A DNA stretch of 42,420 nucleotides from positions 27,213 to 69,632 of the forward strand of contig JAQVOV010000002.1 in NCBI GenBank assembly GCA_028702395.1, given 5' to 3'. Source of the DNA: Candidatus Omnitrophota bacterium (lineage in GTDB: Bacteria > Omnitrophota > Gorgyraeia > JABMRN01). The notes beneath the pieces are model-generated. The model was not told the origin of the DNA, searched no databases, and saw only the letters and a list, made by a program, of their open reading frames with translations. The translations under genes and the position numbers were made by a program. Each line of letters starts with the position of its first letter. Positions within the stretch are counted from its first letter, which is position 1. Below are positions 1,733 through 37,129 of the stretch, in pieces.

Positions 1733-1846
1733 AAACCCTCCTTTGTCTATATAATTATGTGCTAATTATATAAAATATATTAAAAAAAAGTTAGACTTTA
1801 CCAAGTAGATTATAATCTATACATTATATAATGTCAATGTATATAT

Positions 1847-2024
1847 TGGTTGGACTAGTTTTACTAGTTGAACTGGTTGAACTAGTTAAACCTAGTCCAA
1901 CTATTTTATATTTTTACTGAAACCCACATTCAGGACGTTCCATTAGCTCGTAGCTCGCGGCGCGTAGCGCGTAGCTCAATTCAGAACATTCCACCCTTTT
2001 ATCTTTCATCTTTAATCTTTTATC
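1847..2024 (-). repeat. composite intergenic hairpin element (ACTAGTT-word palindromic block, two GGACGTTCCA-type boxes flanking TAGCTCG/CGCGTAGC inner arms, TTATCTT-word arm)
   Basis: TTGGACTAG (1850-1858) pairs with CTAGTCCAA (1892-1900). Boxes lie at 1931-1943 and 1979-1996, with inner inverted arms at 1944-1978. A heptamer arm TTATCTT TCATCTT TAATCTT TTATCTT (1997-2024) runs into the mfd stop. Confidence 0.7.
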
Positions 2025-3914
2025 TTATTGTCTATTCACCTTTGTCTCACTGAGTATCTTTATAGATTTACGTAAAAGTCTACAGTATAGATCAAATCCT
2101 ATCTGTTCAATAAAACCATGTTGTTTATCCCCTAAAATATTTCCTGCACCTCTAAGTTCAAGATCCTGCATAGCTATTTTGAACCCTGAACCAAAATCAG
2201 TGAATTTTTGTAAGGTTTCGAGACGTTTTTTTTCTTCGTAAGAGAGGTTATGCTTTTTTCTTACAATAAAATATGCAAAAGCCTGTTTATTAAATCTGCC
2301 GACTCTTCCCCTTAACTGATAAAGATCTGCGATCCCGAAATTCTCTGCTCTGTCAACTATCAATGTATTAGCATTAGGAATATCAATACCTGATTCAATA
2401 ATGGTAGTACAAATAAGAATATCCGTTTTGCCTTTAATGAAATTTATCATAGTAGATTCAAGTTCTTTTTCACTCATTCTCCCATGACCTACCGATATTT
2501 TAGCATCAGGAAAAAGCTGTTTGATTTTCCGTTCAACAACATAAATGCTATTGATCCTATTATGGACAAAGAATATCTGTCCTTTTCTTTTAAGCTCATT
2601 TTCAATTGCTTGTTTTATAAGTTTATCATTAAAATCAATGATCTCGGTCTTTATAGGATGCCTTTCAAGCGGAGGAGTGTTGATCACAGAAATATCCCTT
2701 CCTCCCATAAGAGCAAGATAAAGTGTTCGTGGAATAGGCGTTGCTGTCAATGTAAGAACATCTACAAGTAGCCTCATTTTTTTGTATTTTTCCTTATGTT
2801 TAACGCCAAAACGCTGTTCTTCATCTATGATAAGTAATCCCAAGTCTTTAAACTCAATATCATTTGACAACAGTCTATGTGTACCTATTATTATGTCTAT
2901 CTGTCCCTGTTTTACTTTTTCAACAATGTTTTTTTGCTGTGTTTTTTTTCTGAATCTTGAAAGCATTTCCACAGTAACAGGAAAATCTTTTAATCTCGTT
3001 GCGAAAGTACTATAATGCTGCTCTGCCAGAATTGTCGTAGGTACTAAAATAGCAACCTGTTTATTATCCATAACGGCTTTAAAAGCAGCACGAAGAGCAA
3101 CCTCTGTTTTCCCATAACCAACATCACCGCATAAAAGCCTATCCATAGGTTTTTCATTTTGCATATCGTTTTTAACATCTATTGTTGATCTAATTTGATC
3201 CTGTGTTTCTTTATAAGGAAAAAGATCTTCCATTTGTTTTTGCCATTCTGTGTCCTTTGAAAAAGAAAAACCTTTTTTCATCTCGCGTTTTGCCTGAACC
3301 TCCAGTATCTCCTGCGCCATTTGAAAAACATCTTTTTGTACCTTTATTTTTGTAGCCTGCCATGTTTTTGTTCCAAGTCTGCTTAATTTAGGCTTTTTCC
3401 TGTTAAAAAAAATATATTTTTGGATCTTATCCAGATCTGTTACAGGTACATAAAGGATATCTCCGTCTTCATATTCAAGCTTAACACATTCCTGCTGTTG
3501 GGAATCATTATGCAGAAACGTTTTTTCAATATATCTGCCTATACCATAATCAACGTGAACAACAAAATCCCCTGGTTCAATATCGACAAACGCATTAATA
3601 GGATCTTCTTCTGAAAAAATATTTTTTGAATACTTTGTTTTTTTTTGAGATATTATAATTATGGATTGATGCTGGTCAATGGTCTTAAAACTTACAGGAT
3701 CAATAGATACTATTCTTTCTATTTCATCCCCAAAAAACTCTATTCTGACAGGATATTCAAAAGTGGTTGGAAACAGGATAATATTTTCACCTTTTATACA
3801 AAAATCTCCCCATTGAGAAATACCGTCTGTTTTGGTATAGTTAAGCTCAACAAGTCTTTTGACAAGATCTTCTCTATCAACATGTGATTGTTTATATAGT
3901 TTGATGGGTTCCAT
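2025..3914 (-). CDS. mfd: transcription-repair coupling factor, compact form
   Basis: CarD/RID-like GDFVVHVDYGIGRY, helicase motifs GDVGYGKTEVA, IIDEEQRFG and QLRGRVGR, and TRG-like LGDKQHGFIEQIGFDLY. Only 629 aa, with about 113 aa before the RID and about 25 aa after TRG. Confidence 0.8.
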   Translation of the reverse strand: MEPIKLYKQSHVDREDLVKRLVELNYTKTDGISQWGDFCIKGENIILFPTTFEYPVRIEFFGDEIERIVSIDPVSFKTIDQHQSIIIISQKKTKYSKNIFSEEDPINAFVDIEPGDFVVHVDYGIGRYIEKTFLHNDSQQQECVKLEYEDGDILYVPVTDLDKIQKYIFFNRKKPKLSRLGTKTWQATKIKVQKDVFQMAQEILEVQAKREMKKGFSFSKDTEWQKQMEDLFPYKETQDQIRSTIDVKNDMQNEKPMDRLLCGDVGYGKTEVALRAAFKAVMDNKQVAILVPTTILAEQHYSTFATRLKDFPVTVEMLSRFRKKTQQKNIVEKVKQGQIDIIIGTHRLLSNDIEFKDLGLLIIDEEQRFGVKHKEKYKKMRLLVDVLTLTATPIPRTLYLALMGGRDISVINTPPLERHPIKTEIIDFNDKLIKQAIENELKRKGQIFFVHNRINSIYVVERKIKQLFPDAKISVGHGRMSEKELESTMINFIKGKTDILICTTIIESGIDIPNANTLIVDRAENFGIADLYQLRGRVGRFNKQAFAYFIVRKKHNLSYEEKKRLETLQKFTDFGSGFKIAMQDLELRGAGNILGDKQHGFIEQIGFDLYCRLLRKSIKILSETKVNRQ

Positions 3915-4136
3915 TTTAGTATCCGTGTCTGTGTCGGTGTCGGTATTGTTTAATGATGGTTAGATCTGGTATTAACATAAAGTAAAACACCTGTGAATTC
4001 GCAATCATTGTCATTTACTTTTGTCATACCGGTTTTGCAATATATAACGTCAGACAAATACCGGTATCGAAAGTTATTATGCAATAATATCTTTAAATCA
4101 ATTTCTGCAGACACAGAAACTGACACTGACACTAAT
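3915..4136. repeat. composite intergenic hairpin element (GTGTCN-word arms, TATCTTTAAATCAATT core)
   Basis: Arm GTATCCGTGTCTGTGTCGGTGTCGGTATTG (3919-3948) faces arm CAGACACAGAAACTGACACTGACACTAATC (4108-4137). Motif ATATCTTTAAATCAATTT at 4087-4104 lies next to the right arm. Confidence 0.75.
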
Positions 4137-6212: not shown

Positions 6213-6327
6213 ATAGTGACTATTAACTAGAAATTAGTGACTGGAAAAGTCTACATAACGTTATCTTTAAATCAATTTATTCTAATCACTAGTCACTTGT
6301 CACTAATCACTAACCCCTATTAATCCC
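6213..6327. repeat. composite intergenic hairpin element (TAGTGAC-word arms, TATCTTTAAATCAATT core)
   Basis: Arms at 6214-6244 (TAGTGAC TATTAAC TAGAAAT TAGTGAC TGG) and 6282-6313 (CTAATCACTAGTCACTTGTCACTAATCACTAA). Core TTATCTTTAAATCAATTTATT at 6261-6281. Terminal CCCCTATTAATCCC at 6314-6327. Confidence 0.75.
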
Positions 6328-8143: not shown

Positions 8144-8366
8144 TTTATCTCCTTTATAGCATCTGCAAGGTAAAAGTAAAAAGGTAAAAGTAAAAAACCT
8201 GTTTTCATTGTGGAGTCTTTTGTTTTTTTTGTAGGGGCGTATTGCAATACGCCCCTACAACGCTCTATTTGAACGTTCCATTAGCTACACGTAATGCGTA
8301 GTTCAATCCAGGACGTTCCACCCTTTTTACTTTTGCCTTTTTCCTTTTTACTTATCTTCCTATTAA
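8144..8366 (-). repeat. composite intercistronic hairpin element (GGTAAAA/GTAAAAA-word arms)
   Basis: Arms at 8167-8197 and 8324-8360. CATTGTGGAG box at 8198-8219. GC hairpin GTAGGGGCGTATTGCAATACGCCCCTAC at 8231-8258. Boxes GAACGTTCCAT (8271-8281) and AGGACGTTCCAC (8310-8321) flank an inner block at 8282-8305. Confidence 0.8.
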
Positions 8367-9173
8367 CTACTTTCTCGGTCCAAGCACAGGATCTTCAAAC
8401 CTAAGATCAATATATTCAAGTCCTTTAACATCAATATTCTTATCTTGTAAGATAAATTGAAGTTTCTTTATTTTTTCAGAAAAATCTTGTTGCCCCATTC
8501 GTATTTCAATAGGTCCATTCAGTTGAACAATGAGATTTTTGGGATTAGAAACATCTATGCTTTTTATGCCATGTTTTTTTATTTCAGGCACGTTATAAAA
8601 TATCGATAATACACTTTTTGCAAGTTCAACTCTATCTGAAGATATTTTTTCTCCAATAGAAGGTTTTGTCCATATTTTAAAACCTGTTATAAGCGGTAGA
8701 TCTGACATAGTTGCTTGATCATATACAAGAACAGTTGAATCATTATCAATAGCATATTGCCCAAAAGCATTTATTGATGCAAGCGGCACACGTTGATCAA
8801 CCATAAGTTCTATCCTATCAGGTAAAACTCTTTTAACAACAATATTCTTTATTTGAGGATAATTCTTGTTAAGCTGATATTCTAACCACTTAATATTCAC
8901 TTTGAAAATGTTCTCTCCTTTAATATTCTCAGTTTCTTTGATCGTCTTCAAAAAGCTGATATCCCTGCTTTGTCCTGTATTGTTTACAATAACAATACTT
9001 TTGACCCGAAAATACTTTATTCTCATAATATAATTTCTAAGGGCAAATCCCAAAACAAGTAGGATCAATAAAACAAGCAAAAAAGGGAAACATTTCTTGA
9101 ACACTGTTTTGATCACTTCTATTATTTTATCTTTTTTTTCTGAAAACACGTTACGTTTTCTTTTCCTAGCCAT
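8367..9173 (-). CDS. ftsQ: cell division protein FtsQ
   Basis: 268 aa with a basic N-terminus, one TM helix and a POTRA-like region. It sits between ddl and ftsA. Confidence 0.8.
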   Translation of the reverse strand: MARKRKRNVFSEKKDKIIEVIKTVFKKCFPFLLVLLILLVLGFALRNYIMRIKYFRVKSIVIVNNTGQSRDISFLKTIKETENIKGENIFKVNIKWLEYQLNKNYPQIKNIVVKRVLPDRIELMVDQRVPLASINAFGQYAIDNDSTVLVYDQATMSDLPLITGFKIWTKPSIGEKISSDRVELAKSVLSIFYNVPEIKKHGIKSIDVSNPKNLIVQLNGPIEIRMGQQDFSEKIKKLQFILQDKNIDVKGLEYIDLRFEDPVLGPRK

Positions 9174-9309
9174 TGTTACTCCTTTATAGCGATTTTAGCT
9201 GTCAGCTATCAGCGTTCAGCTATCAGCAAAGGATCTTTCTAGAATCATTTTTTAGATCCCCTCTTTTAGGACGTTCCACAAGCTGACAGCTGAAAGCTAA
9301 TGGCTGATG
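9174..9309 (-). repeat. intercistronic hairpin element (AGCTNTC-word arms)
   Basis: Arm TAGCTGTCAGCTATCAGCGTTCAGCTATCAGC (9196-9227) faces arm AAGCTGACAGCTGAAAGCTAATGGCTGATG (9280-9309). Box AGGACGTTCCAC at 9268-9279. Confidence 0.8.
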
Positions 9310-10260
9310 TTAACCGATCTCATCGTCCTGTCCATAGCGCACTTTTTTAAATACCGCAAGCTCAAGTATCTGTTCACATAGTTCGTCAAAAGATATCCCA
9401 AAAACTTTTGCTGCTTTAGGCAACAAAGACCTTTCAGTAAGTCCCGGGATCGTATTAACCTCAAGAACATATATTTTACCTTGATGATCCATCCTCATAT
9501 CAACTCGCGAAAAGTCCTCACAACCCAAGGTATTATGGGTCAATAATGCAATATCACTGATCTCCTGTTTTTTTTCATCTGATAATTCTGCAGGACAAAT
9601 ATATTCTGTTTGTTTATCTATGTATTTTGCATTAAAATCATACACATTGTCCTTAGCAATGATCTCAACAACAGGCAAGACAGATTTCCCTAGGATACCA
9701 ACTGTTAATTCTTTTCCGTCTATGAATTCCTCAAAAATTATCGTATTTCCATACTGAAAAGCCTTATTCATAGCTGTTTTTATATCTTTTTTATCAATTA
9801 CAATACTTAATCCAAAACTAGATCCTTCAGTAGCAGGTTTTATTACAACAGGTAAACCGAATTCATACGAATCAATATTAAAATATTGTTCTTTGTTTAC
9901 GATCATATACGGAGGAACTAGAATATTATTATCACTAAGGATCTTCTTTGTTAATTCCTTATCCATACAAACTTTTGAAGATAAAGGCCCTGATCCTGTA
10001 AAAGCTATACCATATTCAGATAAAAACTGCTGTATTGTACCATTTTCACCTTCTTTACCATGTAAAGCAATAAAAGCAATATCAATATTCTCATTTAGTA
10101 TCTGCTGCGGCATATTCTGTGTTACATCAATAAATACAACATTAAAACCTTTTCTTTGGAGTGCTTTGAATACAGCAGTTCCAGATACAAGGCTTATCTC
10201 TCTTTCGGAAGAAGTTCCTCCTGCAATAACACCAATTTTAAATTCGTGAAGCGTTTTCAT
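9310..10260 (-). CDS. ddl: D-alanine--D-alanine ligase
   Basis: 316-aa ATP-grasp protein with typical Ddl N-terminus (GGTSSEREISLVSG) and C-terminus (EVNTIPGLTERSLLPKAA). Confidence 0.95.
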   Translation of the reverse strand: MKTLHEFKIGVIAGGTSSEREISLVSGTAVFKALQRKGFNVVFIDVTQNMPQQILNENIDIAFIALHGKEGENGTIQQFLSEYGIAFTGSGPLSSKVCMDKELTKKILSDNNILVPPYMIVNKEQYFNIDSYEFGLPVVIKPATEGSSFGLSIVIDKKDIKTAMNKAFQYGNTIIFEEFIDGKELTVGILGKSVLPVVEIIAKDNVYDFNAKYIDKQTEYICPAELSDEKKQEISDIALLTHNTLGCEDFSRVDMRMDHQGKIYVLEVNTIPGLTERSLLPKAAKVFGISFDELCEQILELAVFKKVRYGQDDEIG

Positions 10261-13610: not shown

Positions 13611-13763
13611 GATTCTCCTAAAAAATATACTTTGTTATTAGTTATTTGTTATTAGTGTGAGTGGTGGATCGTCCTAAATACAGTTTTCAAACAAACCCTA
13701 TGAAGAGCCTTCTTTCACACACACTAATAACACACACTAATAACTAACTCCAATTAACTCGCT
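13611..13763 (+). repeat. intercistronic hairpin element (TTGTTAT/TAGTGTG-word arms), opposite orientation to the others
   Basis: Arms at 13631-13663 and 13726-13750. Here the box GTGGATCGTCCTAAATA (13664-13680) reads on the plus strand. Confidence 0.75.
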
Positions 13764-14843: not shown

Positions 14844-15085
14844 ATTATTTCCTTTATATGACTTTTAAGTAAAAAGTAAAAAGTTAAAAGTTAAAAGTTA
14901 AAAATCTGTTATCATTGTAGAATCTTATGTTAGGCTCATTTTTAGTGTCTGTGTCTGTTTCTGTGTCTGGAAAGGAACATCCTAAATATAGTTTTTTTAC
15001 ATCTTTTAGAAGGATCCACCACTGACACAAACACAAACACTGACACTAATTACTTTTACCTTTTTCCTTTTTCCTTAATCTTCTA
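14844..15085 (-). repeat. nested composite element: GTGTCT-word element inside a GTAAAAA-word element
   Basis: Outer arms at 14865-14904 and 15050-15076. CATTGTAGAATCTT box at 14905-14926. Inner arms at 14942-14970 and 15020-15049 enclose GGAACATCCTAAATATAG...AGAAGGATCCAC. Confidence 0.8.
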
Positions 15086-16444
15086 TTAACTGAATCTCTC
15101 TTTAACGATCCGCTGAAACACCTCGCCTCTATGTTTATAACTTGTGAACATGTCAAAGCTTGAACACATAGGAGACAAAAGTATCACTTGATCCTTTTGG
15201 GCAATTTTGATAGCCCTATCTATCGCATCTTCCATTGACCCTGCCTTTTCAACAGGAACATTTTTTTTATCCATTACATCAAAAATTTTATCTGCAGCTT
15301 CTCCTATAAGAATTATTTTGTAGACCTTTTCTTTTATTTCAGGTAAAACACTTAAATAATCTCCTCCTTTATCTCTGCCGCCTGCGATCAAAATGATCTT
15401 CTTATCCAAAGACTGTATAGCTCTTTTTGTTGCATCAACATTAGTTGCTTTTGAATCATCCATGAATACGATCCCGTCCTTTTCATAAAATTTTTCGAGT
15501 CTATGGGCTAATGGTTGAAAATCTTCAATAGCACTGATAACAGCTTCAATATTAACTCCGGCAGATATAGCCATAAAAGAAGAGGCGCAAATATTTTCCA
15601 GATTATATTTCCCTTTTAATTTTGTTTTTGGAATATCAAAAAGTTTTTTTACATCATCATCTATCTTTGAATACATGACATTGTTCAATACAAACGCGCC
15701 TTCAACTTCTTCTGTTACACTATAAAAGAACTTTTTTCCTCTGCCTGGTATTATAAGGTCTTTTGAAGCTTTATCATCATGATTTATCAACGCAATATCA
15801 GATTCGATCTGATTTTCAAAAAGTCTGGCCTTCGTATCAGCATAATCATCAAACGAAGTATAACGCTCTAAATGATCATCCGTAACATTCAATATACATC
15901 CTATATTAACTTTAAGATCCACTATTTTTTCCAATTGAAAAGAGCTTATCTCCAATATAACAAATGTATCATCATCAATATTATCTATCTCTCCCGAAAA
16001 AGAGTTTCCTATATTACCGCAAACAATATACTTTTTTGAATCTTTTTCAAACATCTTTCCTAATAAGGTAACTACTGTCGATTTACCGTTAGTACCTGTC
16101 ACAGCAATTATTTTTCCTTTACAAAAATTATATGCAAATTCTATTTCACTTATTATAGGAATGCTGTTGGCGAAAGCATATTTAACAGGAAGACTGTTGT
16201 TATCCACCCCAGGACTAAGTACGATTATATCTGTGCCTGAAAGAAACTCTTCTGTATGCTGGCCGAATTCAACTTCAATAAAATTTTCCTTTAAAACATC
16301 AATATCCTGTGTGATCTTTTCTTCTGAACAACTATCAGTAACAGCCGCTATTGCGCCATGTTTGTGTGCCAGAATAGCAGCATCAAACCCGCTTCTGCCT
16401 AAACCTACAACAACTATTCGTTTGTTTCGTATATCCATCTTCAC
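15086..16444 (-). CDS. murD: UDP-N-acetylmuramoylalanine--D-glutamate ligase
   Basis: 452 aa with N-terminal GLGRSG and the Mur ligase P-loop GTNGKST. Confidence 0.95.
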   Translation of the reverse strand: MKMDIRNKRIVVVGLGRSGFDAAILAHKHGAIAAVTDSCSEEKITQDIDVLKENFIEVEFGQHTEEFLSGTDIIVLSPGVDNNSLPVKYAFANSIPIISEIEFAYNFCKGKIIAVTGTNGKSTVVTLLGKMFEKDSKKYIVCGNIGNSFSGEIDNIDDDTFVILEISSFQLEKIVDLKVNIGCILNVTDDHLERYTSFDDYADTKARLFENQIESDIALINHDDKASKDLIIPGRGKKFFYSVTEEVEGAFVLNNVMYSKIDDDVKKLFDIPKTKLKGKYNLENICASSFMAISAGVNIEAVISAIEDFQPLAHRLEKFYEKDGIVFMDDSKATNVDATKRAIQSLDKKIILIAGGRDKGGDYLSVLPEIKEKVYKIILIGEAADKIFDVMDKKNVPVEKAGSMEDAIDRAIKIAQKDQVILLSPMCSSFDMFTSYKHRGEVFQRIVKERFS

Positions 16445-16648
16445 CTCTAATGGGATTCAAGGTAAAAGTAAAAAATCTGTTACCATTGTGGAATCTTCTT
16501 GGATTTCTTTGTAGGGGCGTATTGCAATACGCCCCTACAAAAACCTCTTTCAGAACTTTCCACATTTTTTGTTCTTAACTAAATTTAGGACGCTCCATCC
16601 TTTTACCTTTTACCTTTTTACTTTTTCCTTATAAGTCTTATTACTCGC
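16445..16648 (-). repeat. composite intercistronic hairpin element (GGTAAAA-word arms)
   Basis: Arms at 16459-16475 and 16599-16628. Box TCTGTTACCATTGTGGAATCTT at 16476-16497. A GC hairpin at 16511-16538 is identical to 8231-8258. Further boxes at 16551-16565 and 16587-16598. Confidence 0.8.
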
Positions 16649-17740: not shown

Positions 17741-17869
17741 TAGACTCCTTTATAGCAACTTTAGCTTTCAGCTTTCAGCAAAAAGATCGGTTTAACAAAA
17801 AGTTTCTTTAAAAAACTCATTTAGGATCTTCCTCTGGCTGAGAGCTGACAGCTGAAGGCTGAAGGCTGC
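17741..17869 (-). repeat. intercistronic hairpin element (AGCTTTC/GCTGAAG-word arms) overlapping the murF 3' end
   Basis: Arm at 17760-17779 faces arm at 17835-17869. Box AGGATCTTCCTC at 17823-17834. The right arm and the box lie inside the murF reading frame. Confidence 0.75.
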
Positions 17870-19223
17870 TTTTCATTAACTCTATCTTTCGCACAACCTC
17901 TTCCATCTTCGCTTTACGTGAACCTTTGACAAGTATTATATCATTAGGTTCAAGTATATTAAACAATTGTTTATACAGACTTTCTTTTTCATTAAAAACA
18001 AAAACATGTGCTTTTTCCATACCATTTTTTATTGCACCATTTGCTATATACGCGGCTTCTTTTCCGACAGTGATAAGTTTGTCTATTTTTGCAGATGCTA
18101 TGTTCTTCCCGATCTGAATATGCAGTTTTTTGGACTGTTCTCCGAGTTCTAACATATCTGAAACAATTATGATTTTTTTATTTTTCCCTATTTTATCCAA
18201 GGATTCTATTGCCTTTTGCATTGATAAAGGATTAGAATTGTAAGTATCATCAATAACTGTATATCTGCCTTTTCTACTTACAAAGAATCTGTTCTTGTTT
18301 TCTGCTCTATATTTTTTCAAACTCAGCGCCATTTTTTTTAAAGGTATATCAAAGATCTGTCCAACAGTTACTGCACATAATACATTATAAAGGTTATGTT
18401 TCCCAATTAAGCTCACTGTAAATTTAACACTACCAACATAAAACGAAAGAGCCCCTTTTTTATCATAATATTTGTCATTATGACTTTTCTTGTCTATGTT
18501 AAACATGACTTTTTTACAGTGTACCTTTATTTTGTTCAAAAGCTGATCATCTCCGTTCAACACAGCTATTCCATTATCAGGCAAAGAATTGATAAGTTCT
18601 TTTTTTTCTTTTAAAACATTAAGGCGTGTCTTAAATCCTTTTAAATGTGCATCTCCAACATTTGTTATCACTCCTACGTCAGGCTGTACTATCTGTGACA
18701 ATCTAGAAATTTCACCGGGTGAATTTGTCCCAAGCTCAACAACACCTACTTCATGTGTTTTCTTTAACTGAAATAATGTTAAAGGAACACCGATAAAATT
18801 ATTCTTTGTTCCTTCTGTTTTAAGAACCTTATAACTTTTAGATAAAAGAAAAGCTATTATTTCTTTTGTGCTTGTCTTTCCTGCAGAACCTGTTATTGCG
18901 ACTATTGGGATATCCATTTTACATCTGTAAAAACAAGCAATATCACCCATATTTTTGATCGTATCTTTTACGAAAAAAACGGGAATATGTTTTTCTACTG
19001 CAACGGCATCTTTTGTATTTTTTGAAGCAATAATGCAAACTGCTCCTTTTTTATATGCTTCGAGTACAAAATCATTACCGTTGAATCTTTCCCCTTTGAT
19101 GGCAATGTAAAGATCGCCCTTTTTCACCTTGCGGGAATCAATGCAAACACCTTTGATCTTTGTTCGATCATCTTTATATTTACGGTTCTTTAGAACCTGG
19201 GCTATTTCTGAAACAGTGAACAT
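17817..19223 (-). CDS. murF: UDP-N-acetylmuramoyl-tripeptide--D-alanyl-D-alanine ligase
   Basis: 468 aa with the Mur ligase P-loop GSAGKTSTKE. The last ~17 aa (SSLQPSAVSSQPEEDPK) are encoded by the repeat element. Confidence 0.9.
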   Translation of the reverse strand: MFTVSEIAQVLKNRKYKDDRTKIKGVCIDSRKVKKGDLYIAIKGERFNGNDFVLEAYKKGAVCIIASKNTKDAVAVEKHIPVFFVKDTIKNMGDIACFYRCKMDIPIVAITGSAGKTSTKEIIAFLLSKSYKVLKTEGTKNNFIGVPLTLFQLKKTHEVGVVELGTNSPGEISRLSQIVQPDVGVITNVGDAHLKGFKTRLNVLKEKKELINSLPDNGIAVLNGDDQLLNKIKVHCKKVMFNIDKKSHNDKYYDKKGALSFYVGSVKFTVSLIGKHNLYNVLCAVTVGQIFDIPLKKMALSLKKYRAENKNRFFVSRKGRYTVIDDTYNSNPLSMQKAIESLDKIGKNKKIIIVSDMLELGEQSKKLHIQIGKNIASAKIDKLITVGKEAAYIANGAIKNGMEKAHVFVFNEKESLYKQLFNILEPNDIILVKGSRKAKMEEVVRKIELMKSSLQPSAVSSQPEEDPK

Positions 19224-19436
19224 TGGACTCCTTTATTTAGTGACTAGTAACTAGAAACTAGTTACTAGAAATAATTGCTTTAAAGCTATTTCGTTTATGA
19301 AGTTTCTTACATAATCTCTCTAAAATTGTTGCTAATTAATCAATTAAATTTTTATTCTCTATCTTAGGATATCTTAAGATCAATTTATCCTAGTCACTAG
19401 TCACGAATCCCTATCACCTGATACCTAGTCACGAAC
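19224..19436. repeat. composite intercistronic hairpin element (TAGTNAC-word arms, ATCTTAAGATCAATTTATC core)
   Basis: Arms at 19237-19268 and 19390-19436. Core motif at 19369-19389. The right arm overlaps the last codons of murE. Confidence 0.75.
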
Positions 19437-20843
19437 TCCTATTAACTCCTTAACAACCTTCACATCATCAAACTTCATCTTCTTGTTTCCTATTATCTGA
19501 TATTTCTCATGCCCTTTTCCGGCAATAATAACGATACTATCCTTTTGTGCGATGTTCAAAGCTATTTTGATAGCTTCACGTCTGTCTTTTTCTATAATGA
19601 CTTTACTAATATATTTTTTTATGCCTTTTACAATATCATTGATAATACAAGCAGGATCTTCTGTTCTTGGATTATCACTTGTGACAAGGACTTTATCTGA
19701 TAACATGCATGCAACTTCACCCATTTTGGGTCTTTTAGTCTTATCTCTGTCTCCTCCGCATCCGAAAACTGTAATAATTTGTTTTGGTCTTATTTCCTGT
19801 AAGGTCCGTAAAACATTTAAAAGTGCGTCAGCAGTATGTGCATAATCGACAAACACTTTAAACTTTTTATTGATCTTTACAGGCTGCAGACGACCATCCG
19901 GTGGTTTAGCATTACCAATACTTTTTATAACATCTTTGATATTAATACCTAAAAAAACACCCGCAGAAACAGCTGCTAATATATTTGAAATATTATGTCT
20001 GCCGATAAGGGATGTTTTTACCTTGTACTTTTTATCAAAAACATTGAGATCAAAAGTTGAACCTGCCAAAGTCATTTCAATGTTTTCTGCATAAACATCC
20101 GTTTTTTTACCTACACTGAAGCCTATGCATCTGTTCTTAAGCTCTTTTTTAAGTATTTTTCCTTTTGGGTCATCAATATTGACAATAGCAATTCCTTTTT
20201 TTTTAAGGTTAACAAATATTTTTTTCTTTGCTTTGAAATAACTATTTATATTTTTGTGATAATCCATATGTTCTGGGGTAAGATTGGTAAAGACTGCCAC
20301 GTCGTAAAAAACATGTCCTGCTCTTTCCTGTTCCAACGCATGAGAAGAAACTTCCATTATGGAGTACTTTATCTTTTCTCTGACAATATCCGACAACAAT
20401 CTGTTGAGTGTAAAAGCATCCGGAGTAGTCCTATCTGCATCAACTGTCTTTTCACCTATCTTATAATAGATCGTTCCTATCAGACCTGTCCTTTTACCTG
20501 AATCCTTTAATATCTTATCCAGCAAAAACGAAACAGTTGTCTTTCCATTAGTACCTGTTATACCAATATTAAAAAGTTTTTTTGAGGGTTCATCGAAATA
20601 CTCTGAACAATTTCTCGAATACTCTTTATGAGAATTTTGTACGATCTTTATTTTTTTAGAAGAAACATGTACCTTTTTGGAAAGTTTCTTCCATATATCC
20701 TTTTGGACTATACAAAACTTTGCACCTTTATCTATTGCAGACTCAATATGCTGATGTCCATCGGAAACAGCTCCTTTTAAGGCAATAAAGATATCCCCTT
20801 TTTGAACTTTTCTTGAATCTGATGTGAATTTTGGTCGTTCCAT
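19425..20843 (-). CDS. murE: UDP-N-acetylmuramoyl-L-alanyl-D-glutamate--2,6-diaminopimelate ligase
   Basis: 472 aa with the P-loop GTNGKTT and a MurE-type DNPR motif (SDNPRTEDP). Confidence 0.9.
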   Translation of the reverse strand: MERPKFTSDSRKVQKGDIFIALKGAVSDGHQHIESAIDKGAKFCIVQKDIWKKLSKKVHVSSKKIKIVQNSHKEYSRNCSEYFDEPSKKLFNIGITGTNGKTTVSFLLDKILKDSGKRTGLIGTIYYKIGEKTVDADRTTPDAFTLNRLLSDIVREKIKYSIMEVSSHALEQERAGHVFYDVAVFTNLTPEHMDYHKNINSYFKAKKKIFVNLKKKGIAIVNIDDPKGKILKKELKNRCIGFSVGKKTDVYAENIEMTLAGSTFDLNVFDKKYKVKTSLIGRHNISNILAAVSAGVFLGINIKDVIKSIGNAKPPDGRLQPVKINKKFKVFVDYAHTADALLNVLRTLQEIRPKQIITVFGCGGDRDKTKRPKMGEVACMLSDKVLVTSDNPRTEDPACIINDIVKGIKKYISKVIIEKDRREAIKIALNIAQKDSIVIIAGKGHEKYQIIGNKKMKFDDVKVVKELIGVRD

Positions 20844-20949
20844 TTAACTCCTTTATAGCATGTTCGAAATTCGGTAATCGAAAATCGGAAATCGAATTGT
20901 TTTTTGTTTTCCGACTACCGTCTCCCGACTCCCGATTTACGAATGCTTA
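20844..20949 (-). repeat. minimal hairpin element: two 35-nt heptamer-word arms and a 12-nt loop
   Basis: Left arm TTCGAAA TTCGGTA ATCGAAA ATCGGAA ATCGAA (20863-20896). Loop TTGTTTTTTGTT. Right arm TTCCGAC TACCGTC TCCCGAC TCCCGAT TTACGAA (20909-20943). Confidence 0.85.
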
Positions 20950-22626
20950 TTAACTCTCCTCCGGCACCTCTAGATACCTTAATGACTTCTGCATAACTTC
21001 CCTGAATACAGGTGCAGCAACACTTCCTCCGAAATAATCGCCCTTAGGTTCATTTACACTCACAACAACAACAAGTTCTGGGTCTTTATAAGGTGCAAAT
21101 CCCATAAATGAAGCAATGTATTTGCCTTCTGCATACCTGCCGCCTATGACCTTTTGTGCTGTTCCTGTTTTACCGCAAGCATAATATCCATTCAATATTG
21201 CTTTTTTCCCTGTACCGCTTTGTACAGCTCCTTTTAATATTTCTTTAACAGTATCTGCACTTTTTCCGCTTATAACCCTTTTTTTTATTTTTGGCTTGAA
21301 TTTTTTTATCACGTTACCATTTTCATCCCTTATCTCTTTAACAATATACGGCTGCATCAGCAATCCTCCATTAGCAACTACGCTCAAAGCATCCGCCAAT
21401 TGTAAAGTTGTACATGAAACACCCTGTCCCATTGGGATAGTTGTCATATCAGATGGGGTCCACGTTCTCACGTTCCTTAAAATTCCATTTTCCTCTCCAG
21501 GGAGATCTATACCTGTTGACTGACCAATTCCAAAATTCAATAGATAATTGTAGAAATCATCTTCTCCTATTTTAGCTGTTGCTTTAACTGTTCCTATATT
21601 GCTGGATTTCTGTATAACTTGAGAAAAAGACAGGTTACCATAACCATGATAGTCATGAAGAACCCTTTTTCCGACGCTATACTGTCCATTCTCACAAAAG
21701 AACATATCATCAGGTTTGACCTTTCCAGTATCAATATCAGCACACGCACTTAACACTTTAAAAACACTGCCAGGTTCATAAACATCTGTTATACACCTAT
21801 TTTTGAGATCCTCTTTCTCTGCTTTTGAATATTGATTATTCTCATAACTGGGATAAGAACACATTGCATATATCTCTCCCGTAATAGGGGACATTACTAT
21901 TATCATTGCAGATTCCGGTTTTCTTTTTTTCACAAGCTCTCGCATTTCGGTTTCTACTGTATGCTGTATTACTTCATCAATAGTAAGTATAATATCATAC
22001 CCTTTTTTGGCAGGTAAGAACTCCTCGTATGATGATATTTTATTTTGCCTGGCATCCCTGAAAAAGCTTTTCCATCCGTATTTACCCCTTAAAAAATTTT
22101 CATAATAAAGTTCTATACCTTCGATCCCTTTGTTATCAATATCTGTAAAACCTATCACATGACATAAGAGATCACCTTTAGGATAACTTCTTTTTGTTTC
22201 CTGTAAAAGGTAAAGCCCGTTGATTTTTGATATTTTTATTCTGGTGGTTTCTTCAGACGAAAGTCCGCGTTTTATCCAGATGAACGCCTTATCTTTATTG
22301 ATACGTTCCCTCACAATGTTTTCATCAACATCTATCAGTTCACATATAGACCTTATAACTTCTTCTTTGTTGGTTATTTCACGAGGAACAGCATAAAGGC
22401 TTTCTATAGGCGTGTCAACTGCAAAAGCCCTGTTATTTCTATCAAAAATACCACCTCTTTCAGGTGCAAGTTCTATTTTAACTCTATGCTGTATATCTGC
22501 TTTTTTCTTGAAAAACTCATAGTTTATCACCTGCCTATTATACACTCTTAATATAAGACATATGAATAATATGCAAAACAAAAAAAGGACTATTAATTGT
22601 CTTTTACGGTTTATGTTTCTATACAC
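20950..22626 (-). CDS. ftsI: peptidoglycan D,D-transpeptidase (class B PBP)
   Basis: 558 aa with an N-terminal TM helix and the transpeptidase motifs SVFK, SSN and KTGTA. Confidence 0.9.
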   Translation of the reverse strand: MYRNINRKRQLIVLFLFCILFICLILRVYNRQVINYEFFKKKADIQHRVKIELAPERGGIFDRNNRAFAVDTPIESLYAVPREITNKEEVIRSICELIDVDENIVRERINKDKAFIWIKRGLSSEETTRIKISKINGLYLLQETKRSYPKGDLLCHVIGFTDIDNKGIEGIELYYENFLRGKYGWKSFFRDARQNKISSYEEFLPAKKGYDIILTIDEVIQHTVETEMRELVKKRKPESAMIIVMSPITGEIYAMCSYPSYENNQYSKAEKEDLKNRCITDVYEPGSVFKVLSACADIDTGKVKPDDMFFCENGQYSVGKRVLHDYHGYGNLSFSQVIQKSSNIGTVKATAKIGEDDFYNYLLNFGIGQSTGIDLPGEENGILRNVRTWTPSDMTTIPMGQGVSCTTLQLADALSVVANGGLLMQPYIVKEIRDENGNVIKKFKPKIKKRVISGKSADTVKEILKGAVQSGTGKKAILNGYYACGKTGTAQKVIGGRYAEGKYIASFMGFAPYKDPELVVVVSVNEPKGDYFGGSVAAPVFREVMQKSLRYLEVPEES

Positions 22627-23000: not shown

Positions 23001-23132
23001 ATTATATTTTCCTTTCTCTTTATATATCCAAACTCGTAACCTTTATATTTGTTCTTTATTAACTTTCCCCTATCATCTGTAAGCTATCACCAAAAGAAGT
23101 ACCTAAACAACCATTACTAATCGAATTTTTTT

Positions 23133-23198
23133 AGGACCATCCACAAGCTGAGCCCTGCCTGCCGGCAGGCAGGGCTAATAGCTGAAAGCTGATGGCTA
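23133..23198 (-). repeat. hairpin-element arm (AGCTGAA words) carrying an inserted GC-rich palindrome
   Basis: Box AGGACCATCCAC at 23133-23144. The arm AAGCTGAG...CTAATAGCTGAAAGCTGATGGCTA is interrupted by CCCTGCCTGCCGGCAGGCAGGG (23153-23174). The partner arm near 23070-23095 is degenerate. Confidence 0.6.
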
Positions 23199-24110
23199 AT
23201 TTTTTTCTATAACCCTCAATTTCGCACTTCTAGCTCTAGGGTTAGCTGCTGTTTCCTCTTCAGTTGGTATAATAGGTTTTTTTGTCAATATTTTAAAATC
23301 TTCCTTGTTTTTAGCCAGTTCCCTAAAGAATTGTTTGATTATACGGTCTTCCAAAGAATGAAATGATATCACACACAATCTGGCTTTTGGCGCAAGGAAC
23401 GTTACAACTTTTTCTAGTGCCTGTTTTATTGATCCCAACTCATTATTTACTTCTATCCTTATAGCCTGAAAAGTCTTTGTAGCAGGATGTATACGTGACC
23501 TTTTACCGCCCCTGCTAAGCGCTTTTAAGACTATTCCGGCAAGTTCATATGTAGTCTCTATCTTTTTGGTCTTTCTTGCGTTAACAATATATCTTGCGAT
23601 CTTCCTTGATGCCCTTTCCTCTCCAAACTGATAAATTACATCTGCTAATTGTTTTTCAGGATATCTATTGACAACATCAAAAGCCGTAATTCTTTGTGAA
23701 AGATCCATCCGCATATCAAGCGGTCCGTTTTCTTTAATACTAAATCCCCTTTGAGGGGTATCTATCTGAAATGATGATATTCCAAGATCAAATAATGCAC
23801 CATTCAGCTTGTCTATGCCATTGTTCTTTAATATTACTTCAAGTTCATCAAAATTTGCATGCTCAATTTTATAGTTTTTTTCTGGATATTCAGCAGATAA
23901 CCTTTTTTTTGCGATATTTATCGCCTGGCCATCTCTGTCTATTCCTATTAAAAAACCTTGAGGCAAAATTCTTTCAAGGAGCCGTTTTGAGTGTCCTGCA
24001 CAGCCAACCGTGCCATCAAGTATCTTATCCCCATTAATTGGGTTAAGATACTTGATGACCTCTTCAGATAACACTGAAATATGCAACTCACTATTTGTAT
24101 TCAACTGCAA
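23196..24110 (-). CDS. rsmH: 16S rRNA (cytosine1402-N4)-methyltransferase
   Basis: 304 aa with HISVLSEEV at the N-terminus, a SAM-binding DGTVGCAGHS motif and DLGISS. Confidence 0.95.
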   Translation of the reverse strand: MQLNTNSELHISVLSEEVIKYLNPINGDKILDGTVGCAGHSKRLLERILPQGFLIGIDRDGQAINIAKKRLSAEYPEKNYKIEHANFDELEVILKNNGIDKLNGALFDLGISSFQIDTPQRGFSIKENGPLDMRMDLSQRITAFDVVNRYPEKQLADVIYQFGEERASRKIARYIVNARKTKKIETTYELAGIVLKALSRGGKRSRIHPATKTFQAIRIEVNNELGSIKQALEKVVTFLAPKARLCVISFHSLEDRIIKQFFRELAKNKEDFKILTKKPIIPTEEETAANPRARSAKLRVIEKN

Positions 24111-27978: not shown

Positions 27979-27996
27979 TTTTTCTCCTTATACTAT

Positions 27997-28094
27997 AAAC
28001 CGTTATGCGTTGTGCGTTATTGCGTTATGCGTAAATCGTAAACCGTGAACCGTATATCTTTAAATCAATTAATACTATTCACTATTCACTAAAG
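27997..28094. repeat. hybrid element: CGTNNNN-word arm Y, TATCTTTAAATCAATT core, ATTCACT-word arm
   Basis: Arm Y at 27997-28054, core at 28055-28070, arm AATACTATTCACTATTCACTAAAG at 28071-28094. The complement of arm Y lies 1.55 kb away at 29605-29690. Confidence 0.8.
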
Positions 28095-28099
28095 CCCTA

Positions 28100-29314
28100 T
28101 TAACCTAAAACCTCTGATAATAGGTCCAGATAATCTGATATCAGTCTGGTAGTAAGAAAATGTTTTCTGACATGTTCTTTTGCTTTTACACCCATTGATT
28201 CACTTAATTTAGGATCTTTAAAAAGCTTTACTACTTTATCTGCACATGCTTTAAGATCATAAGGATCAACTAAAAATCCTGTTTGTCCATCAATGATCTG
28301 ATGAGGAATACCTCCTACATTACCTGCAACTACCGGTTTACCTTTCCATAAAGCTTCTGCTACGACCAACCCAAATCCCTCTTTAATTGATTTTTGGATA
28401 ATGACAGTAGAAAATCGTTGAATAGCATTCACAAGAAGCTCATTATTACCTACAACGAATAGAACATCTCCTTTATCAATATAACTTTTTGCTTTCGCAT
28501 AAACTCTTTCAAATATTTTCATACCTTCAGGGTCATCTGTTGCAAGGTTATAGCAATAAAGAAGCCTGCAATCCACTTTTTCTTTTACAAGTTTAAAAAC
28601 CTCAAGTACTCCTTCAGGGTCTTTCCAAGGATCCATTCTTGACACTTGTGTTAATAAAGGTTTATCTGTTGGGATATTATTATCTTTTATATACTTCATA
28701 ATCTCTTCTTCAGAGAGCTCTCTGTTCTTTAAAGACAAAGGATCTATTGCAGGTTGAATTACCTTTTGAATGACCGGAAGATCAGGTTTTCTGTATTTTT
28801 CGCTTGATATGATAATAGCATCATAACGGATCATGAATTTTTTTAAATACTCCCATAATTCTTTATTAGGATCAGTAATATCTATATGGCATCTCCATAT
28901 CCATGGTTGTTGTTTTCTGTAATAAGATATTAAAGGAAGCGGCTGTGGATCATGAACTATCAAACAATCATATTTATTAAGCTGCGAAAAACTTGCATAT
29001 TCCTGATTTATATCAGTATAAATAGATTTTACTTGTGGGGAAAGATCAATAGGCCCGCTTTGAAGTGCATTGTGAAAACTTTTTGTTACATCAAAAAAAG
29101 CAGGGCTTCCGTGAATTGTACGCCATTCTGCGTCTAAACCAACCTCGTTCATAAGAGGAACCATTCTTCCCAGTATTTCAGCAACACCTCCGCCTAAAAA
29201 TGTTGCGTTTACATTCGCTATCTTCTTACGATATAATTTATTGGCTTTCTTGAATATCTTTGATATCGTTTCAACACCTACAATATCAATATAATCTGAT
29301 ATACTTCTCATCAT
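28100..29314 (-). CDS. treT: trehalose glycosyltransferring synthase TreT-like GT4 glycosyltransferase
   Basis: 404 aa, collinear with archaeal TreT as recalled (GGGVAEIL, FF.VTK.FHNALQ, VHDPQP, PW.WRCHID, VSR.DPWK, EGFGL.V.EA.WKGKPV). Confidence 0.8.
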   Translation of the reverse strand: MMRSISDYIDIVGVETISKIFKKANKLYRKKIANVNATFLGGGVAEILGRMVPLMNEVGLDAEWRTIHGSPAFFDVTKSFHNALQSGPIDLSPQVKSIYTDINQEYASFSQLNKYDCLIVHDPQPLPLISYYRKQQPWIWRCHIDITDPNKELWEYLKKFMIRYDAIIISSEKYRKPDLPVIQKVIQPAIDPLSLKNRELSEEEIMKYIKDNNIPTDKPLLTQVSRMDPWKDPEGVLEVFKLVKEKVDCRLLYCYNLATDDPEGMKIFERVYAKAKSYIDKGDVLFVVGNNELLVNAIQRFSTVIIQKSIKEGFGLVVAEALWKGKPVVAGNVGGIPHQIIDGQTGFLVDPYDLKACADKVVKLFKDPKLSESMGVKAKEHVRKHFLTTRLISDYLDLLSEVLG

Positions 29315-37044: not shown

Positions 37045-37097
37045 AGAGGGCTGTCCCAAACTACGCTTTAACAGTATCAGTGTACAGCCCTCTTTTT
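37045..37097. terminator. hairpin terminator shared by the convergent Fic and channel transcripts
   Basis: AGAGGGCTGT (37045-37054) pairs with ACAGCCCTCT (37083-37092). An A-run lies upstream and a T-run downstream. The loop is a large 28 nt. Confidence 0.55.
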
Positions 37098-37129
37098 TAT
37101 AGCCCGAGCAGGAAACCTCAATCTTTTTC

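Follow-up and report, generated by a model that had tools for sequence, protein, structure and literature searches.

The 221-nt spacer that separates ftsQ from ftsA (E1; 8149..8369, minus strand) is probably one copy of a group of lineage-specific, non-coding, nested palindromic repeats which have been inserted at stop/start junctions, like MITEs, REPs or BIMEs, and whose ends mimic or carry a stop-SD junction. It lies in a 42,420-nt stretch of Candidatus Omnitrophota bacterium (GCA_028702395.1, contig JAQVOV010000002.1, 27,213-69,632), hereafter the window, where at least 14 spacers contain nested palindromic repeats with lengths of 106-245 nt. Nine of the 14 dcw junctions bear a hairpin element, and the repeats sit exactly in the stop/start junctions of otherwise compact operons. 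On the sequence evidence they are best read as selfish, non-autonomous hairpin repeats, that is, as an unusual small mobile repeat rather than a proven translation switch. Gene names were confirmed with NCBIfam. The spacers are reproduced base for base in the Logan assemblies of runs SRR22315503 and SRR22315505, and are therefore no assembly artefact.

Read in the sense of the genes, a copy consists of a 5′ end (G)AGTTAATAG(G), a left arm of tandem 6-7-mers, an optional core, a complementary right arm and the 3′ end GCTATAAAGGAG. The unit families of the arms are AAGGNAA, CAGCYNT, TAGTGAY, GTGTYW, TCGGGAG and CGNNNNA; the core is of type A (GTGGAACGTCCTAAA), often with a REP-like palindrome at the apex, or of type B (AAATTGATTTAAAGATA). 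Each family comprises 3-5 copies whose left arm, core and right arm are 60-90% identical, which bears out the proposal of an earlier, sequence-only reading that the spacers are discrete repeated elements. The orientation of the core relative to the ends is identical in 12 of 13 copies, and the long arms are inverted repeats but family-specific. The automatic arm alignment ran through the loops; curated arms were used instead, and these contain 9-18% mismatches. All but one of the 29 tandem arrays of period 6, 7 or 14 fall in the non-coding 17.5% of the window, the sole array in a coding region being the element-derived tail of murF. A one-armed array of 37 heptamer units was also observed upstream of a small ORF.

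All elements are described on the minus strand. In E1 the 5′ motif TAGTTAATAGG (8359-8369) is composed of the ftsQ stop TAG (8367-8369) and TTAATAGG, and is followed by a left arm of AAGNAAA heptamers (8321-8353), the paired core A sites GTGGAACGTCC..GGAACGTTC (8271-8321), a REP-like palindrome (8231-8258), a right arm (8167-8197) and GCTATAAAGGAG (8149-8160), with the ftsA ATG at 8141-8143. E2, between ddl and ftsQ (9179..9315), holds the ddl stop TAA inside its 5′ edge GGTTAACATC; CAGCYNT arms (9280-9306 and 9195-9226) enclose core A (9227-9279), and the 12-mer occupies 9179-9190. The simplest copy is E8, between ftsI and murE (20848..20956), where GAGTTAATAAGCA (20944-20956; AGT TAA TAA, with the ftsI stop TAA) and the 12-mer (20848-20859) flank TCGGGAG arms (20909-20943 and 20863-20896) that are separated by a 10-nt loop without core.

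E4, between murD and ftsW (14849..15092), is a nested pair: the 5′ motif CAGTTAATAGAAG (15080-15092; AGT TAA TAG, containing the murD stop TAA) and the 3′ variant CATATAAAGGAA (14849-14860) bound outer AAGGAAA arms (15050-15076 and 14867-14904), within which lies an inner element with GTGTYW arms and core A (14942-15049). E3, between ftsW and murG (13615..13760), begins with GAGTTAATTGGAG (13748-13760) 6 nt past the ftsW stop, has arms at 13716-13747 and 13634-13660 and an inverted core A (13661-13680), and ends in TTTTTTAGGAG instead of the 12-mer. In E5, between mraY and murD (16459..16648), GCGAGTAATAAGAC stands right after the mraY stop; the left arm (16598-16630), core A (16579-16597), a REP-like palindrome (16511-16538) and a short right arm (16459-16475) follow without a 12-mer, and the murD RBS TTAGAGGTGAAGATG resembles the native junction of a relative. 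An identical AGCGAGT(T)AAT is found 5-6 nt past the real stops in E3 and E5, and a near-copy, AGTTGCTATAATGGAG, is present in the related genome L221.

Two elements are read as protein. The murF ORF runs through the left arm of E6 (murF-mraY, 17745..17882) into core A, providing the last 21 aa of MurF; the 5′ motif of this element, GAGTTAATGAA (17872-17882), lies in frame within murF and is a copy added by the present analysis. Its left arm (17836-17868), core A (17816-17835), right arm (17759-17779) and 12-mer (17745-17756) are all present. In E7 (murE-murF, 19225..19448), GAGTTAATAGGAG (19436-19448) is in frame within murE, where it codes for E-L-I-G, and the arm contains the stop of murE, so that both MurE and MurF possess element-derived C-terminal tails. 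E7 further contains TAGTGAY arms (19390-19435 and 19237-19268), core B (19370-19386) and the 3′ variant ATAAAGGAG. In E9, between rsmH and ftsL (23069..23199), the CAGCYNT left arm (23174-23199) has the rsmH stop TAG in its first unit and is followed by a GC-rich palindrome (23153-23174), core A (23099-23144) and a degenerate right arm (23069-23091).

The remaining copies lie at other genes. E10, upstream of rsfS (6214..6325), has TAGTGAY arms, core B (6262-6278) and the 5′ motif GATTAATAGGGG (6314-6325) with no adjoining gene end. E11, between argS and an mfd-like gene (3916..4136), carries core B (4088-4104) and GTGTCW arms that adjoin both the argS stop (TAG, 4137-4139) and the next ATG (3912-3914); it is without both end motifs and without an SD. 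E12, between treT and tadA (27984..28105), consists of GGTTAATAGGGC (28094-28105; GGT TAA TAG, with the treT stop TAA), a half arm (28075-28093), core B (28055-28071) and the 3′ end TATAGTATAAGGAG, and includes one half of a long inverted CGNNNNA pair, the right one (28000-28052); the left one (29607-29686) is upstream of treT. E13, at an operon end (37092..37217), has a CAGCYNT left arm (37184-37217), core A, a REP-like palindrome (37131-37158) and GCTATAAAAAAG at 37092-37103 with no gene beyond, but no right arm. In E14, between the mfd-like gene and fhs (1846..2026), the stop TAA is within the first unit of an AAGATNA left arm (1995-2026), which is followed by a double core A (1933-1994) and a separate AACYAGT palindrome (1846-1900).

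The end motifs link these hairpins to the translation signals. The 12-mer GCTATAAAGGAG occurs four times in the window, where 100 dinucleotide shuffles give an expectation of 0.00; all four copies lie on the gene strand (minus), where each forms the 3′ edge of a long hairpin and is followed after 4-5 nt by the ATG of ftsA, ftsQ, mraY or murE. Variants precede ftsW (CATATAAAGGAA) and murF (CTAAATAAAGGAG). The 5′ motif includes or adjoins the stop codon of the upstream gene, and the sequence-only reading was thus right in placing the upstream stop at the 5′ edge and the downstream ribosome-binding site at the 3′ edge; its coordinates were all confirmed. It had also allowed that the motifs might be equally common at gene boundaries lacking elements. 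A match of at least 9/11 to GAGTTAATAGG is found at 6 of 14 hairpin-bearing gene ends versus 0 of 22 others (Fisher p = 0.0015), and one of at least 10/12 to the 3′ 12-mer at 4 of 14 versus 0 of 22 (p = 0.017). Being restricted to hairpin-bearing gene ends, the motifs are not generic start/stop contexts. The bare words are modestly enriched, AGTTAATAG being observed 4 times versus 0.76 expected and TTAATAGG 7 times versus 3.3. TTAATAG and CTATAAA, 6/7 complementary, are common to several arm families, and the end motifs are found in only about half of the element copies. They also stand at gene-less ends, with GCTATAAA at E13 and the 5′ motif at E10. That the 12-mer is perfect in four copies while the arms decay shows selection on the 3′ end; the same pattern is also expected of a functional host device.

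Comparison with other genomes points to insertion into compact junctions. Ten of the 14 dcw junctions in the window measure at least 76 nt (76-242 nt), whereas across 80 other genomes the junctions have medians of 4-14 nt. In the related genome L221, whose FtsL is 68% identical and whose dcw gene order is the same, the rsmH-ftsL gap is 10 nt (195 nt in the window), the murE-murF gap 9 nt (201 nt) and the mraY-murD gap 1 nt (204 nt), while murD-ftsW (242 nt) and ftsW-murG (153 nt) overlap as TAATG. Since five element-bearing junctions are compact in L221, the elements are lineage-specific insertions. In the nearest FtsQ relative ftsQ and ftsA overlap by 4 nt. The ftsL-ftsI junction presents the opposite case: L221 has a heptamer insertion there and the window only 11 nt, which are the reverse complement of one repeat unit, so copies have been both gained and lost. 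An MraY search of genome contigs returned only distant genomes (at most 55% identity), all without elements, and no element-bearing junction with an empty allele in the same species was found; we infer mobility from the distribution of the copies only.

A second strain, represented by contigs from JGI sample 3300037067, allowed one element, E9, to be compared at a contig end. The flanking coding DNA shows 0 differences in 1313 nt and 2 differences in 1794 nt, but within 23003-23174 there are about 19 substitutions and a 7-nt indel of one unit, a divergence of about 14% which makes E9 hypervariable between strains. The right arm of the other strain pairs better (20/23). Mutagenesis of the DGR type was rejected as an explanation because the substitutions are of all types. 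Such divergence beside near-identical genes points to a very fast, palindrome-specific turnover that is worth study.

These observations suggest how selfish repeats might be tolerated in an essential operon. In a compact junction the native SD would lie inside the upstream gene and the stop would overlap the ATG; an insertion there should be survivable only if the upstream frame soon meets a stop and an SD again stands 4-5 nt ahead of the downstream ATG. The 5′ end would give TAA-TAG in one frame, while in the other frames the gene would stop just before the element or read into the arm, as in murE and murF, and the 3′ end would provide or adjoin AAGGAG. By folding the 100-240 nt insert into one mRNA stem, the arms may leave stop and SD a few nt apart with the SD single-stranded. 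Both ends appear to reproduce the stop-SD junction style of the lineage, L221 having similar sequences at element-free junctions (GTA TAA AGGAG ATTAA ATG; AGT TAATG), and the repeats would for that reason be tolerated in operons, expression being kept, as neutralised insertions and not evolved regulators. The arms probably regain their complementarity through events in the DNA, namely slippage of whole heptamers and template switching or conversion in the palindrome. No transposase, RAYT or integrase is encoded within the 42-kb window and no clean target-site duplication is demonstrable: by eye TAAN, GAG/GGAG or longer junction duplications all fit, and permutation tests for element- or locus-specific direct repeats were negative.

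It is possible, though doubtful, that the hairpin is the only inserted DNA and that the end motifs (GAGTTAAT, GCTATAAAGGAG) are host sequence, either native flanks or a native stop-SD-start junction duplicated as a long target-site duplication of which the left copy was kept for its stop and the right for its SD. By inspection the motifs are direct near-repeats (GTTAATAGGAG versus GCTATAAAGGAG, 9/12 with one gap), and 6 copies have TAAN to the left as well as to the right, with the same rare C at both ends of E2; of 6 right ends, 5 retain a relic TAA in the interval from SD to ATG. L221 has native junctions TATAAAGGAG-ATTAA-ATG, AATAGGAAG-ATTTA-ATG and AGTTAATG. Because murD ends in AGT TAA in both genomes and the AGGAGT.TA..ATG before mraY is orthologous, parts of the end motifs may be host junction sequence. 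At mraY-murD both flanks resemble a single native junction, the left keeping K-M-R-stop, though with CGT in place of AGG for Arg, and the right keeping TTAGAGGTGAAG. Against this, the left and right flanks of a given element resemble each other no more than do those of different elements (permutation p = 0.8), and flanks are no closer to their own orthologous L221 junction than to others (p = 0.86, 0.63), and GCTAT and AGCGAG recur unchanged both at gene-less sites and from one junction to another. For the uninterrupted word GAGTTAATAAAGGAG, a possible empty site, there are only 3-mismatch matches, one of them in the E9 spacer.

The sequence-only reading had taken the elements for intercistronic cassettes. 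As host-selected devices, they would loop out the spacer in a stem, and a ribosome terminating at its 5′ base would re-initiate at the SD or unmask it, coupling or gating the next dcw cistron. The structural half of this proposal agrees with the fold predictions, in which the whole spacer forms one long stem joining stop and SD (RNA z-scores of -5.1, -5.1 and -3.7 for three copies), and in the ftsQ-ftsA copy UAG is predicted to pair with CUA of GCUAU. That stop and SD meet at the base of one predicted stem favours a host role, as do the perfectly conserved 12-mer beside decaying arms and the stem of E11, which joins stop directly to ATG without any SD. So does a sense-strand G-U excess, the transition mismatches in the arms favouring G-U pairing on the mRNA strand by 24 versus 8 (binomial p ~0.007); it hints at RNA-level constraint, and a C-to-T bias on the coding strand would look alike. 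The gate by sequestration does not hold up, since the SD hexamer is placed just beyond the stem, with a predicted pairing probability of 0.03-0.79 (median 0.26 over 10 junctions; below 0.45 in 7 of 10). With an SD predicted to be mostly unpaired there would be nothing to unmask and a terminating ribosome need not free it. For the same reason the model does not describe an RNA-unfolding coupling hairpin, in which the RBS is sequestered until the upstream ribosome opens the structure.

Stable structure right after a stop codon has moreover been argued to insulate translation rather than couple it, and is reported to block re-initiation (bioRxiv 10.1101/2020.02.10.941153); termination-reinitiation coupling reportedly calls for overlaps or very short distances (PMC10666635). 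No MIRU-like internal ORF ends at a downstream start in the elements: the frames leading to the TAA before the ATG are 2-9 codons long and without start codon, E11 being the sole exception. A dedicated host cassette is thus unlikely, with five element-bearing junctions compact in the relative, one copy about 14% different between near-identical strains and arms mismatched at 9-18%. Coupling of stop to start by mere proximity in the modelled stem is possible. As for other signals, intrinsic terminators (GC-rich stem and U run) were rejected, no element stem being called by the terminator scan in sense orientation, and promoters are not enriched in the window (93 found versus 78 +/- 10 expected).

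There is little probability that the elements are junction-mimicking mobile cassettes of a previously undescribed type, which would spread from one operon junction to the next because their ends copy the stop-SD-start sequence of the lineage, perhaps by short-homology recombination without a transposase, and have their arms rapidly rewritten by template switching, the RNA stem keeping the ribosome hand-over across 100-240 nt and possibly being co-opted to tune dcw stoichiometry. Quite unlikely, too, is a role of the stems in RNA processing or stability, whereby RNase III would cleave the near-perfect duplexes of 25-35 bp, or these would shield 3′ ends, and the dcw transcript would be split into units of unequal half-life, as in phage T7 mRNAs and Correia elements. 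In its favour are the length and near continuity of the predicted duplexes, the documented cutting of Correia-element hairpins by RNase III (PMC10969869) and the G-U excess, which fits an RNA-level role; however, the elements are absent in the relative, turn over fast and have decaying arms, and any long palindrome that is transcribed would be processed incidentally. It is very improbable that the heptamer arrays are DNA- or RNA-binding sites of a repeat-recognising protein with the palindromic layout secondary, for although the one-armed array, the period of 6-7 throughout and the precedent of TAACTGA repeats upstream of start codons (PMC4679880) would suit such a role, the units are wholly different between families, which one binding protein cannot explain, and TAACTGA is not repeated in the window.

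If the elements are tolerated selfish repeats, as we favour, small repeats of this sort can colonise an essential, tight operon by bringing or recreating the translation signals that they displace. The ten junctions of 76-242 nt, of which five have counterparts in a relative ranging from overlap to 10 nt, offer natural material on the old question of the distance and structure that ribosomes tolerate between cistrons. On the practical side, the repeats break short-read assemblies of the lineage and place spurious C-terminal tails on the annotated MurE and MurF.

Among known systems several can be set aside. Like the integron attC site, the elements form a hairpin right after a gene and combine a variable sequence with a conserved fold and short, conserved ends; attC is ruled out because the ends are TTAATAG...CTATAAA and not RYYYAAC...GTTRRRY, there is no integrase in the window, and the dcw genes, whose order is shared with L221, are not cassettes. 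The MIRUs of mycobacteria are thought to insert at operon gene starts with the downstream gene still translated (PMC12548453). They are ruled out here as well, having tandem direct repeats of 40-100 bp and an internal ORF coupled with -4 spacing, where our elements have units of 6-7 nt in inverted arms, no such ORF, and a hairpin followed by an ordinary SD. The ribosome termination structure, a stable mRNA structure starting 0-20 nt from the stop (bioRxiv 10.1101/2020.02.10.941153), is a statistical property of native 3′ ends that is reported as insulating, unlike a repeated, inserted element followed by a strong SD. Tandem heptamers in intergenic DNA, often just before start codons, are known as the TAACTGA repeats of Beggiatoaceae and cyanobacterial STRR (PMC4679880); these are direct arrays of one conserved unit, in contrast to the complementary pairs of many units around a core seen here.

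Rickettsia palindromic elements are palindromic repeats inserted in frame inside genes. The tails of MurE and MurF are likewise palindromes read as protein, but the present elements lie at gene ends and usually terminate the frame. Database searches gave no closer match: two elements had no BLAST similarity to PLSDB plasmids or INPHARED phages, Rfam 15 searched with the whole window (E <= 1) gave chance-level matches alone, at best 25-31 bits against thresholds of 50-60 and none on dcw spacers, and 25-26 nt family-specific patterns gave 0 matches in each of two metagenome scans. Core B had 120 AT-rich chance matches in IMG/VR, none with arms.

The greatest resemblance is to REPs and MITEs. The RAYT-associated REP, BIME and REPIN sequences are likewise extragenic, mosaic or nested palindromes with co-evolving arms, and the apex palindromes begin with GTAG and end with CTAC as REPs do; only these palindromes, for example GTAGGGGCGTATTGCAATACGCCCCTAC, have the REP form of a 20-40 nt palindrome with 5′ GTAG. 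The heptamer-arm shells with their stop/SD motifs lack GTAG and are far longer, and no RAYT is present in the window. The apex palindrome has 5 exact matches in IMG/VR, on unrelated GC-rich contigs, which makes it a widespread element in its own right and of no use for tagging this genome. MITEs such as Chunjie of Geobacter uraniireducens and the Correia elements of Neisseria, whose transcribed hairpins RNase III cleaves (PMC10969869), are also small, non-coding, multi-copy, hairpin-forming and inserted in operons, with truncated and nested copies, and at least 14 copies in 42 kb accord with the usual MITE description (below about 500 bp, non-coding, many copies). Unlike MITEs, the elements have no known partner IS and no clear target-site duplication, and their long inverted repeats are tandem 6-7-mers that differ by family, with only a terminal motif of 7-12 nt in common. 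A further difference from MITEs is in their ends, which coincide with stop codon and SD.

The GC content of the window is 33%, and nearly every gene lies on the minus strand. NCBIfam models confirm a dcw cluster of mraZ, rsmH, ftsL, ftsI, murE, murF, mraY, murD, ftsW, murG, murC, murB, ddl, ftsQ and ftsA, and hairpin elements occupy 9 of the 14 junctions of this essential operon. The count of at least 14 element-bearing spacers in the window is a lower bound. The cluster closes (6213-8143) without an ftsZ, its last gene encoding a short FtsA of 345 aa, and an 893-nt spacer, rsfS and argS come next; in the nearest FtsQ relative (contig L207) FtsA is also short, with no adjoining ftsZ.

Between ftsQ and ftsA lies element E1 (8149-8369, about 221-223 nt). 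Read in the mRNA sense, the ftsQ stop TAG is followed immediately by TTAATAGG, a purine-rich left arm built from AAGNAAA heptamers, a pair of core sites (GTGGAACGTCC ... GGAACGTTC), a perfect 28-nt palindrome (GTAGGGGCGTATTGCAATACGCCCCTAC), a complementary pyrimidine right arm, the 12-mer GCTATAAAGGAG, five bases and the ftsA ATG. For most of the spacers the sequence agrees exactly with Logan assemblies from two sequencing runs.

The sequence-only reading had proposed that such elements run from the upstream stop codon to the downstream Shine-Dalgarno (SD) sequence, and all of its listed coordinates check out. The 3′ 12-mer occurs four times versus 0.00 expected, each time (4/4) on the gene strand with an ATG 4-5 nt downstream. 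The 5′ motif, being short and AT-rich, is only mildly enriched as a bare word; of the 14 gene ends with hairpins, however, 6 have a match of at least 9/11 to GAGTTAATAGG versus 0 of 22 others (p = 0.0015), and 4 have one of at least 10/12 to the 3′ motif, again versus 0 of 22 (p = 0.017). Within the window the motifs are therefore not equally frequent at element-free boundaries, and the challenge which that reading had set itself fails. A further 5′ copy, overlooked earlier, is found at murF (GAGTTAATGAA), where the reading frame runs through the motif and the entire left arm and into the core, giving MurF a 21-residue tail of translated element past the end of its conserved domain. Likewise, the MurE C-terminus, E-L-I-G-V-R-D, lies inside its own element. 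The 3′ variant of the ftsW type, CATATAAAGGAA, recurs once more, unchanged, in the mraZ-rsmH spacer (24416-24427), where no start codon follows.

The arms are built of tandem 6-7-mers, and 28 of the 29 period-6/7/14 arrays fall in non-coding DNA (17.5% of the window). They are not copy-specific but group into families: AAGGNAA (4 copies), CAGCYNT with core A (4), TAGTGAY with core B (3), GTGTYW (2), and TCGGGAG, CGNNNNA and TTATTAGTGTGTG (1 each). One pair of cores and one pair of end motifs recur across different arm families, and the elements are therefore mosaics. Core orientation with respect to the ends is identical in 12 of 13 cases. Nesting is of the Russian-doll type: in E4 (murD-ftsW) AAGGAAA arms surround a complete GTGTYW/core A element, and a REP-like palindrome forms the apex of E1 and E5 (mraY-murD). 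No transposase, RAYT or integrase gene is encoded in the window.

The REP-like palindrome (8231-8258, 16511-16538; variants at 37131-37158, 27425-27504 and 29496-29575) matches five unrelated IMG/VR contigs (49-58% GC) letter for letter and seems to be an independent element of wide distribution. A second palindrome (CCCTATACC..GGTATAGGG) occupies its apex at 27425 and 29496. CGNNNNA inverted arms of 53-80 nt (28000-28052, 29607-29686) enclose treT (28100-29314) together with its promoter region and a REP composite. The arrangement resembles an entire gene housed in a single giant hairpin element, or inserted into the loop of one. At 35458-35719, 37 tandem heptamers (sense GGGTCAT/GAGTCAT/GGGTAAT) have no complementary partner and directly precede a small ORF whose SD is strong. 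The loci at 35900-37003 (plus strand), 38464-39167 and 39496-40755 comprise a Fic/DOC protein, which is the sole plus-strand gene, an HTH and Gp49-like pair resembling a toxin-antitoxin module, and a protein carrying a pPIWI-associated nuclease domain; beside the element-rich region they may make up an island of defence or mobile genes. An mfd-like ORF (2025-3914) of only 629 aa, without the N-terminal module, a TRCF C-domain match or an SD, is flanked by E11 (3916-4136) and E14 (1846-2026); a 33-codon ORF within E11 ends 1 nt upstream of its ATG.

Comparison with relatives is the decisive part of the analysis. The lineage is isolated, best identities to anything else being at most 56% (MraY) and 32% (FtsQ). 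FtsL (68% identical) led to a related contig, L221 (ENA ERZ28669879; 12.2 kb, 30.8% GC), with the same dcw order. Its junctions measure 10 nt at rsmH>ftsL (195 nt in the window), 9 nt at murE>murF (201 nt) and 1 nt at mraY>murD (204 nt), with TAATG overlaps at murD>ftsW (242 nt) and ftsW>murG (153 nt). In the nearest FtsQ relative ftsQ and ftsA overlap by 4 nt, and median junctions in 80 other genomes are 4-14 nt; the elements are therefore insertions. Copies are also lost: at ftsL>ftsI L221 (3256-3343) has a heptamer (YCAGTWN) insertion of ~70 nt, where the window (22627-22643) retains 11 nt, ACTGATAATAA, equal to a single unit of this kind in reverse complement and an apparent deletion footprint. 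The L221 murF>mraY spacer is filled with GTAGGGG palindromes.

A second strain of the species (JGI 3300037067) differs at 0 of 1313 and 2 of 1794 nt of coding DNA. At the one locus compared, E9 (rsmH-ftsL; 23003-23174 versus L211), located at a contig end, it carries ~19 substitutions and a 7-nt indel, exactly one heptamer, which shows rapid turnover at this locus. In the second strain the right arm pairs better with the left (20/23; predicted -54.6 versus -46.2 kcal/mol). These differences likely derive from paralogous-copy conversion or from template switching inside the palindrome. DGR-like mutagenesis was ruled out because the substitutions are of all types.

Sense-strand folds are much more stable than shuffles for E1 (z = -5.06), E2 (ddl-ftsQ; -5.09), E8 (ftsI-murE; -3.70) and E6 (murF-mraY; -2.65), and the SD hexamer directly 3′ of the stem is predicted to stay largely single-stranded (median pairing probability 0.26). 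Among transition mismatches of the curated arms, 24 keep G-U pairing possible on the mRNA strand and 8 are of the opposite kind, which fits RNA-level constraint and also C-to-T bias on the coding strand; transversion mismatches affect 37 of 388 aligned positions. The arms are decaying and the 12-mer is intact. In the scans, the main stem of an element never formed a sense-strand terminator and promoters were not enriched; Rfam gave no matching family.

We favor, with some reserve, selfish non-autonomous hairpin repeats rendered harmless by junction-like ends and folding. Such elements would be mobile, inserted copies would pass a survival filter, arm complementarity would be renewed at the DNA level, and the net effect on expression would be neutral. 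In our reading the ends carry or mimic the lineage's canonical stop-SD junction, which is why such copies survive inside operons.

A variant of this model, that the ends are purely duplicated host junction, we regard as possible but doubtful. Element-free L221 junctions read GTA-TAA-AGGAG-ATTAA-ATG and AGT-TAATG, AGT TAA ends murD in both genomes, both E5 flanks resemble the single native mraY>murD junction, and the 5′ and 3′ motifs are near direct repeats of one another. A repeat origin is suggested by GCTAT, dispensable for an SD yet identical in four copies and three arm families; by GCTATAAA at E13 (operon end) with no following gene; by the 5′ motif at E10 (upstream of rsfS) without a gene end; by AGCGAGT(T)AAT, common to E3 (ftsW-murG) and E5 5-6 nt past true stops; and by L221 ftsI>murE, where AGTTGCTATAATGGAG precedes a second SD, the functional one. 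Two permutation tests for element-specific or locus-specific duplication at the flanks were negative.

That the elements couple or gate translation of the next cistron, as the sequence-only reading held, now seems unlikely: the SD is predicted to be free, the elements are absent in the relative, and structures after stops are reported to insulate (bioRxiv 10.1101/2020.02.10.941153). Slightly less probable again is that the stems, like those of Correia elements (PMC10969869), serve in RNase III processing or as stability signals, a role that would be compatible with selfish repeats as a side effect. Heptamers as protein-binding sites (PMC4679880) are very improbable.

Among known systems, the elements do not qualify as MIRUs, attC sites or terminators by the tests that define these, and MIRU-type ORFs ending at downstream starts are absent from the junctions, E11 being the sole exception. 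MITE membership is incomplete: terminal inverted repeats are common to only part of the copies, the permutation tests brought out no target-site duplication, and no partner IS element is known. In their way of working the elements resemble operon-tolerated MITEs (Chunjie) and also MIRUs, repeats believed to keep downstream translation intact (PMC12548453); in appearance they resemble BIME/REPIN mosaics. What is unusual is the family-specific, heptamer-built arms beneath shared 7-12 nt ends, the apex-in-apex nesting, the coincidence of the ends with stop codon and SD, and the occupation of 9 of 14 junctions in an essential operon.
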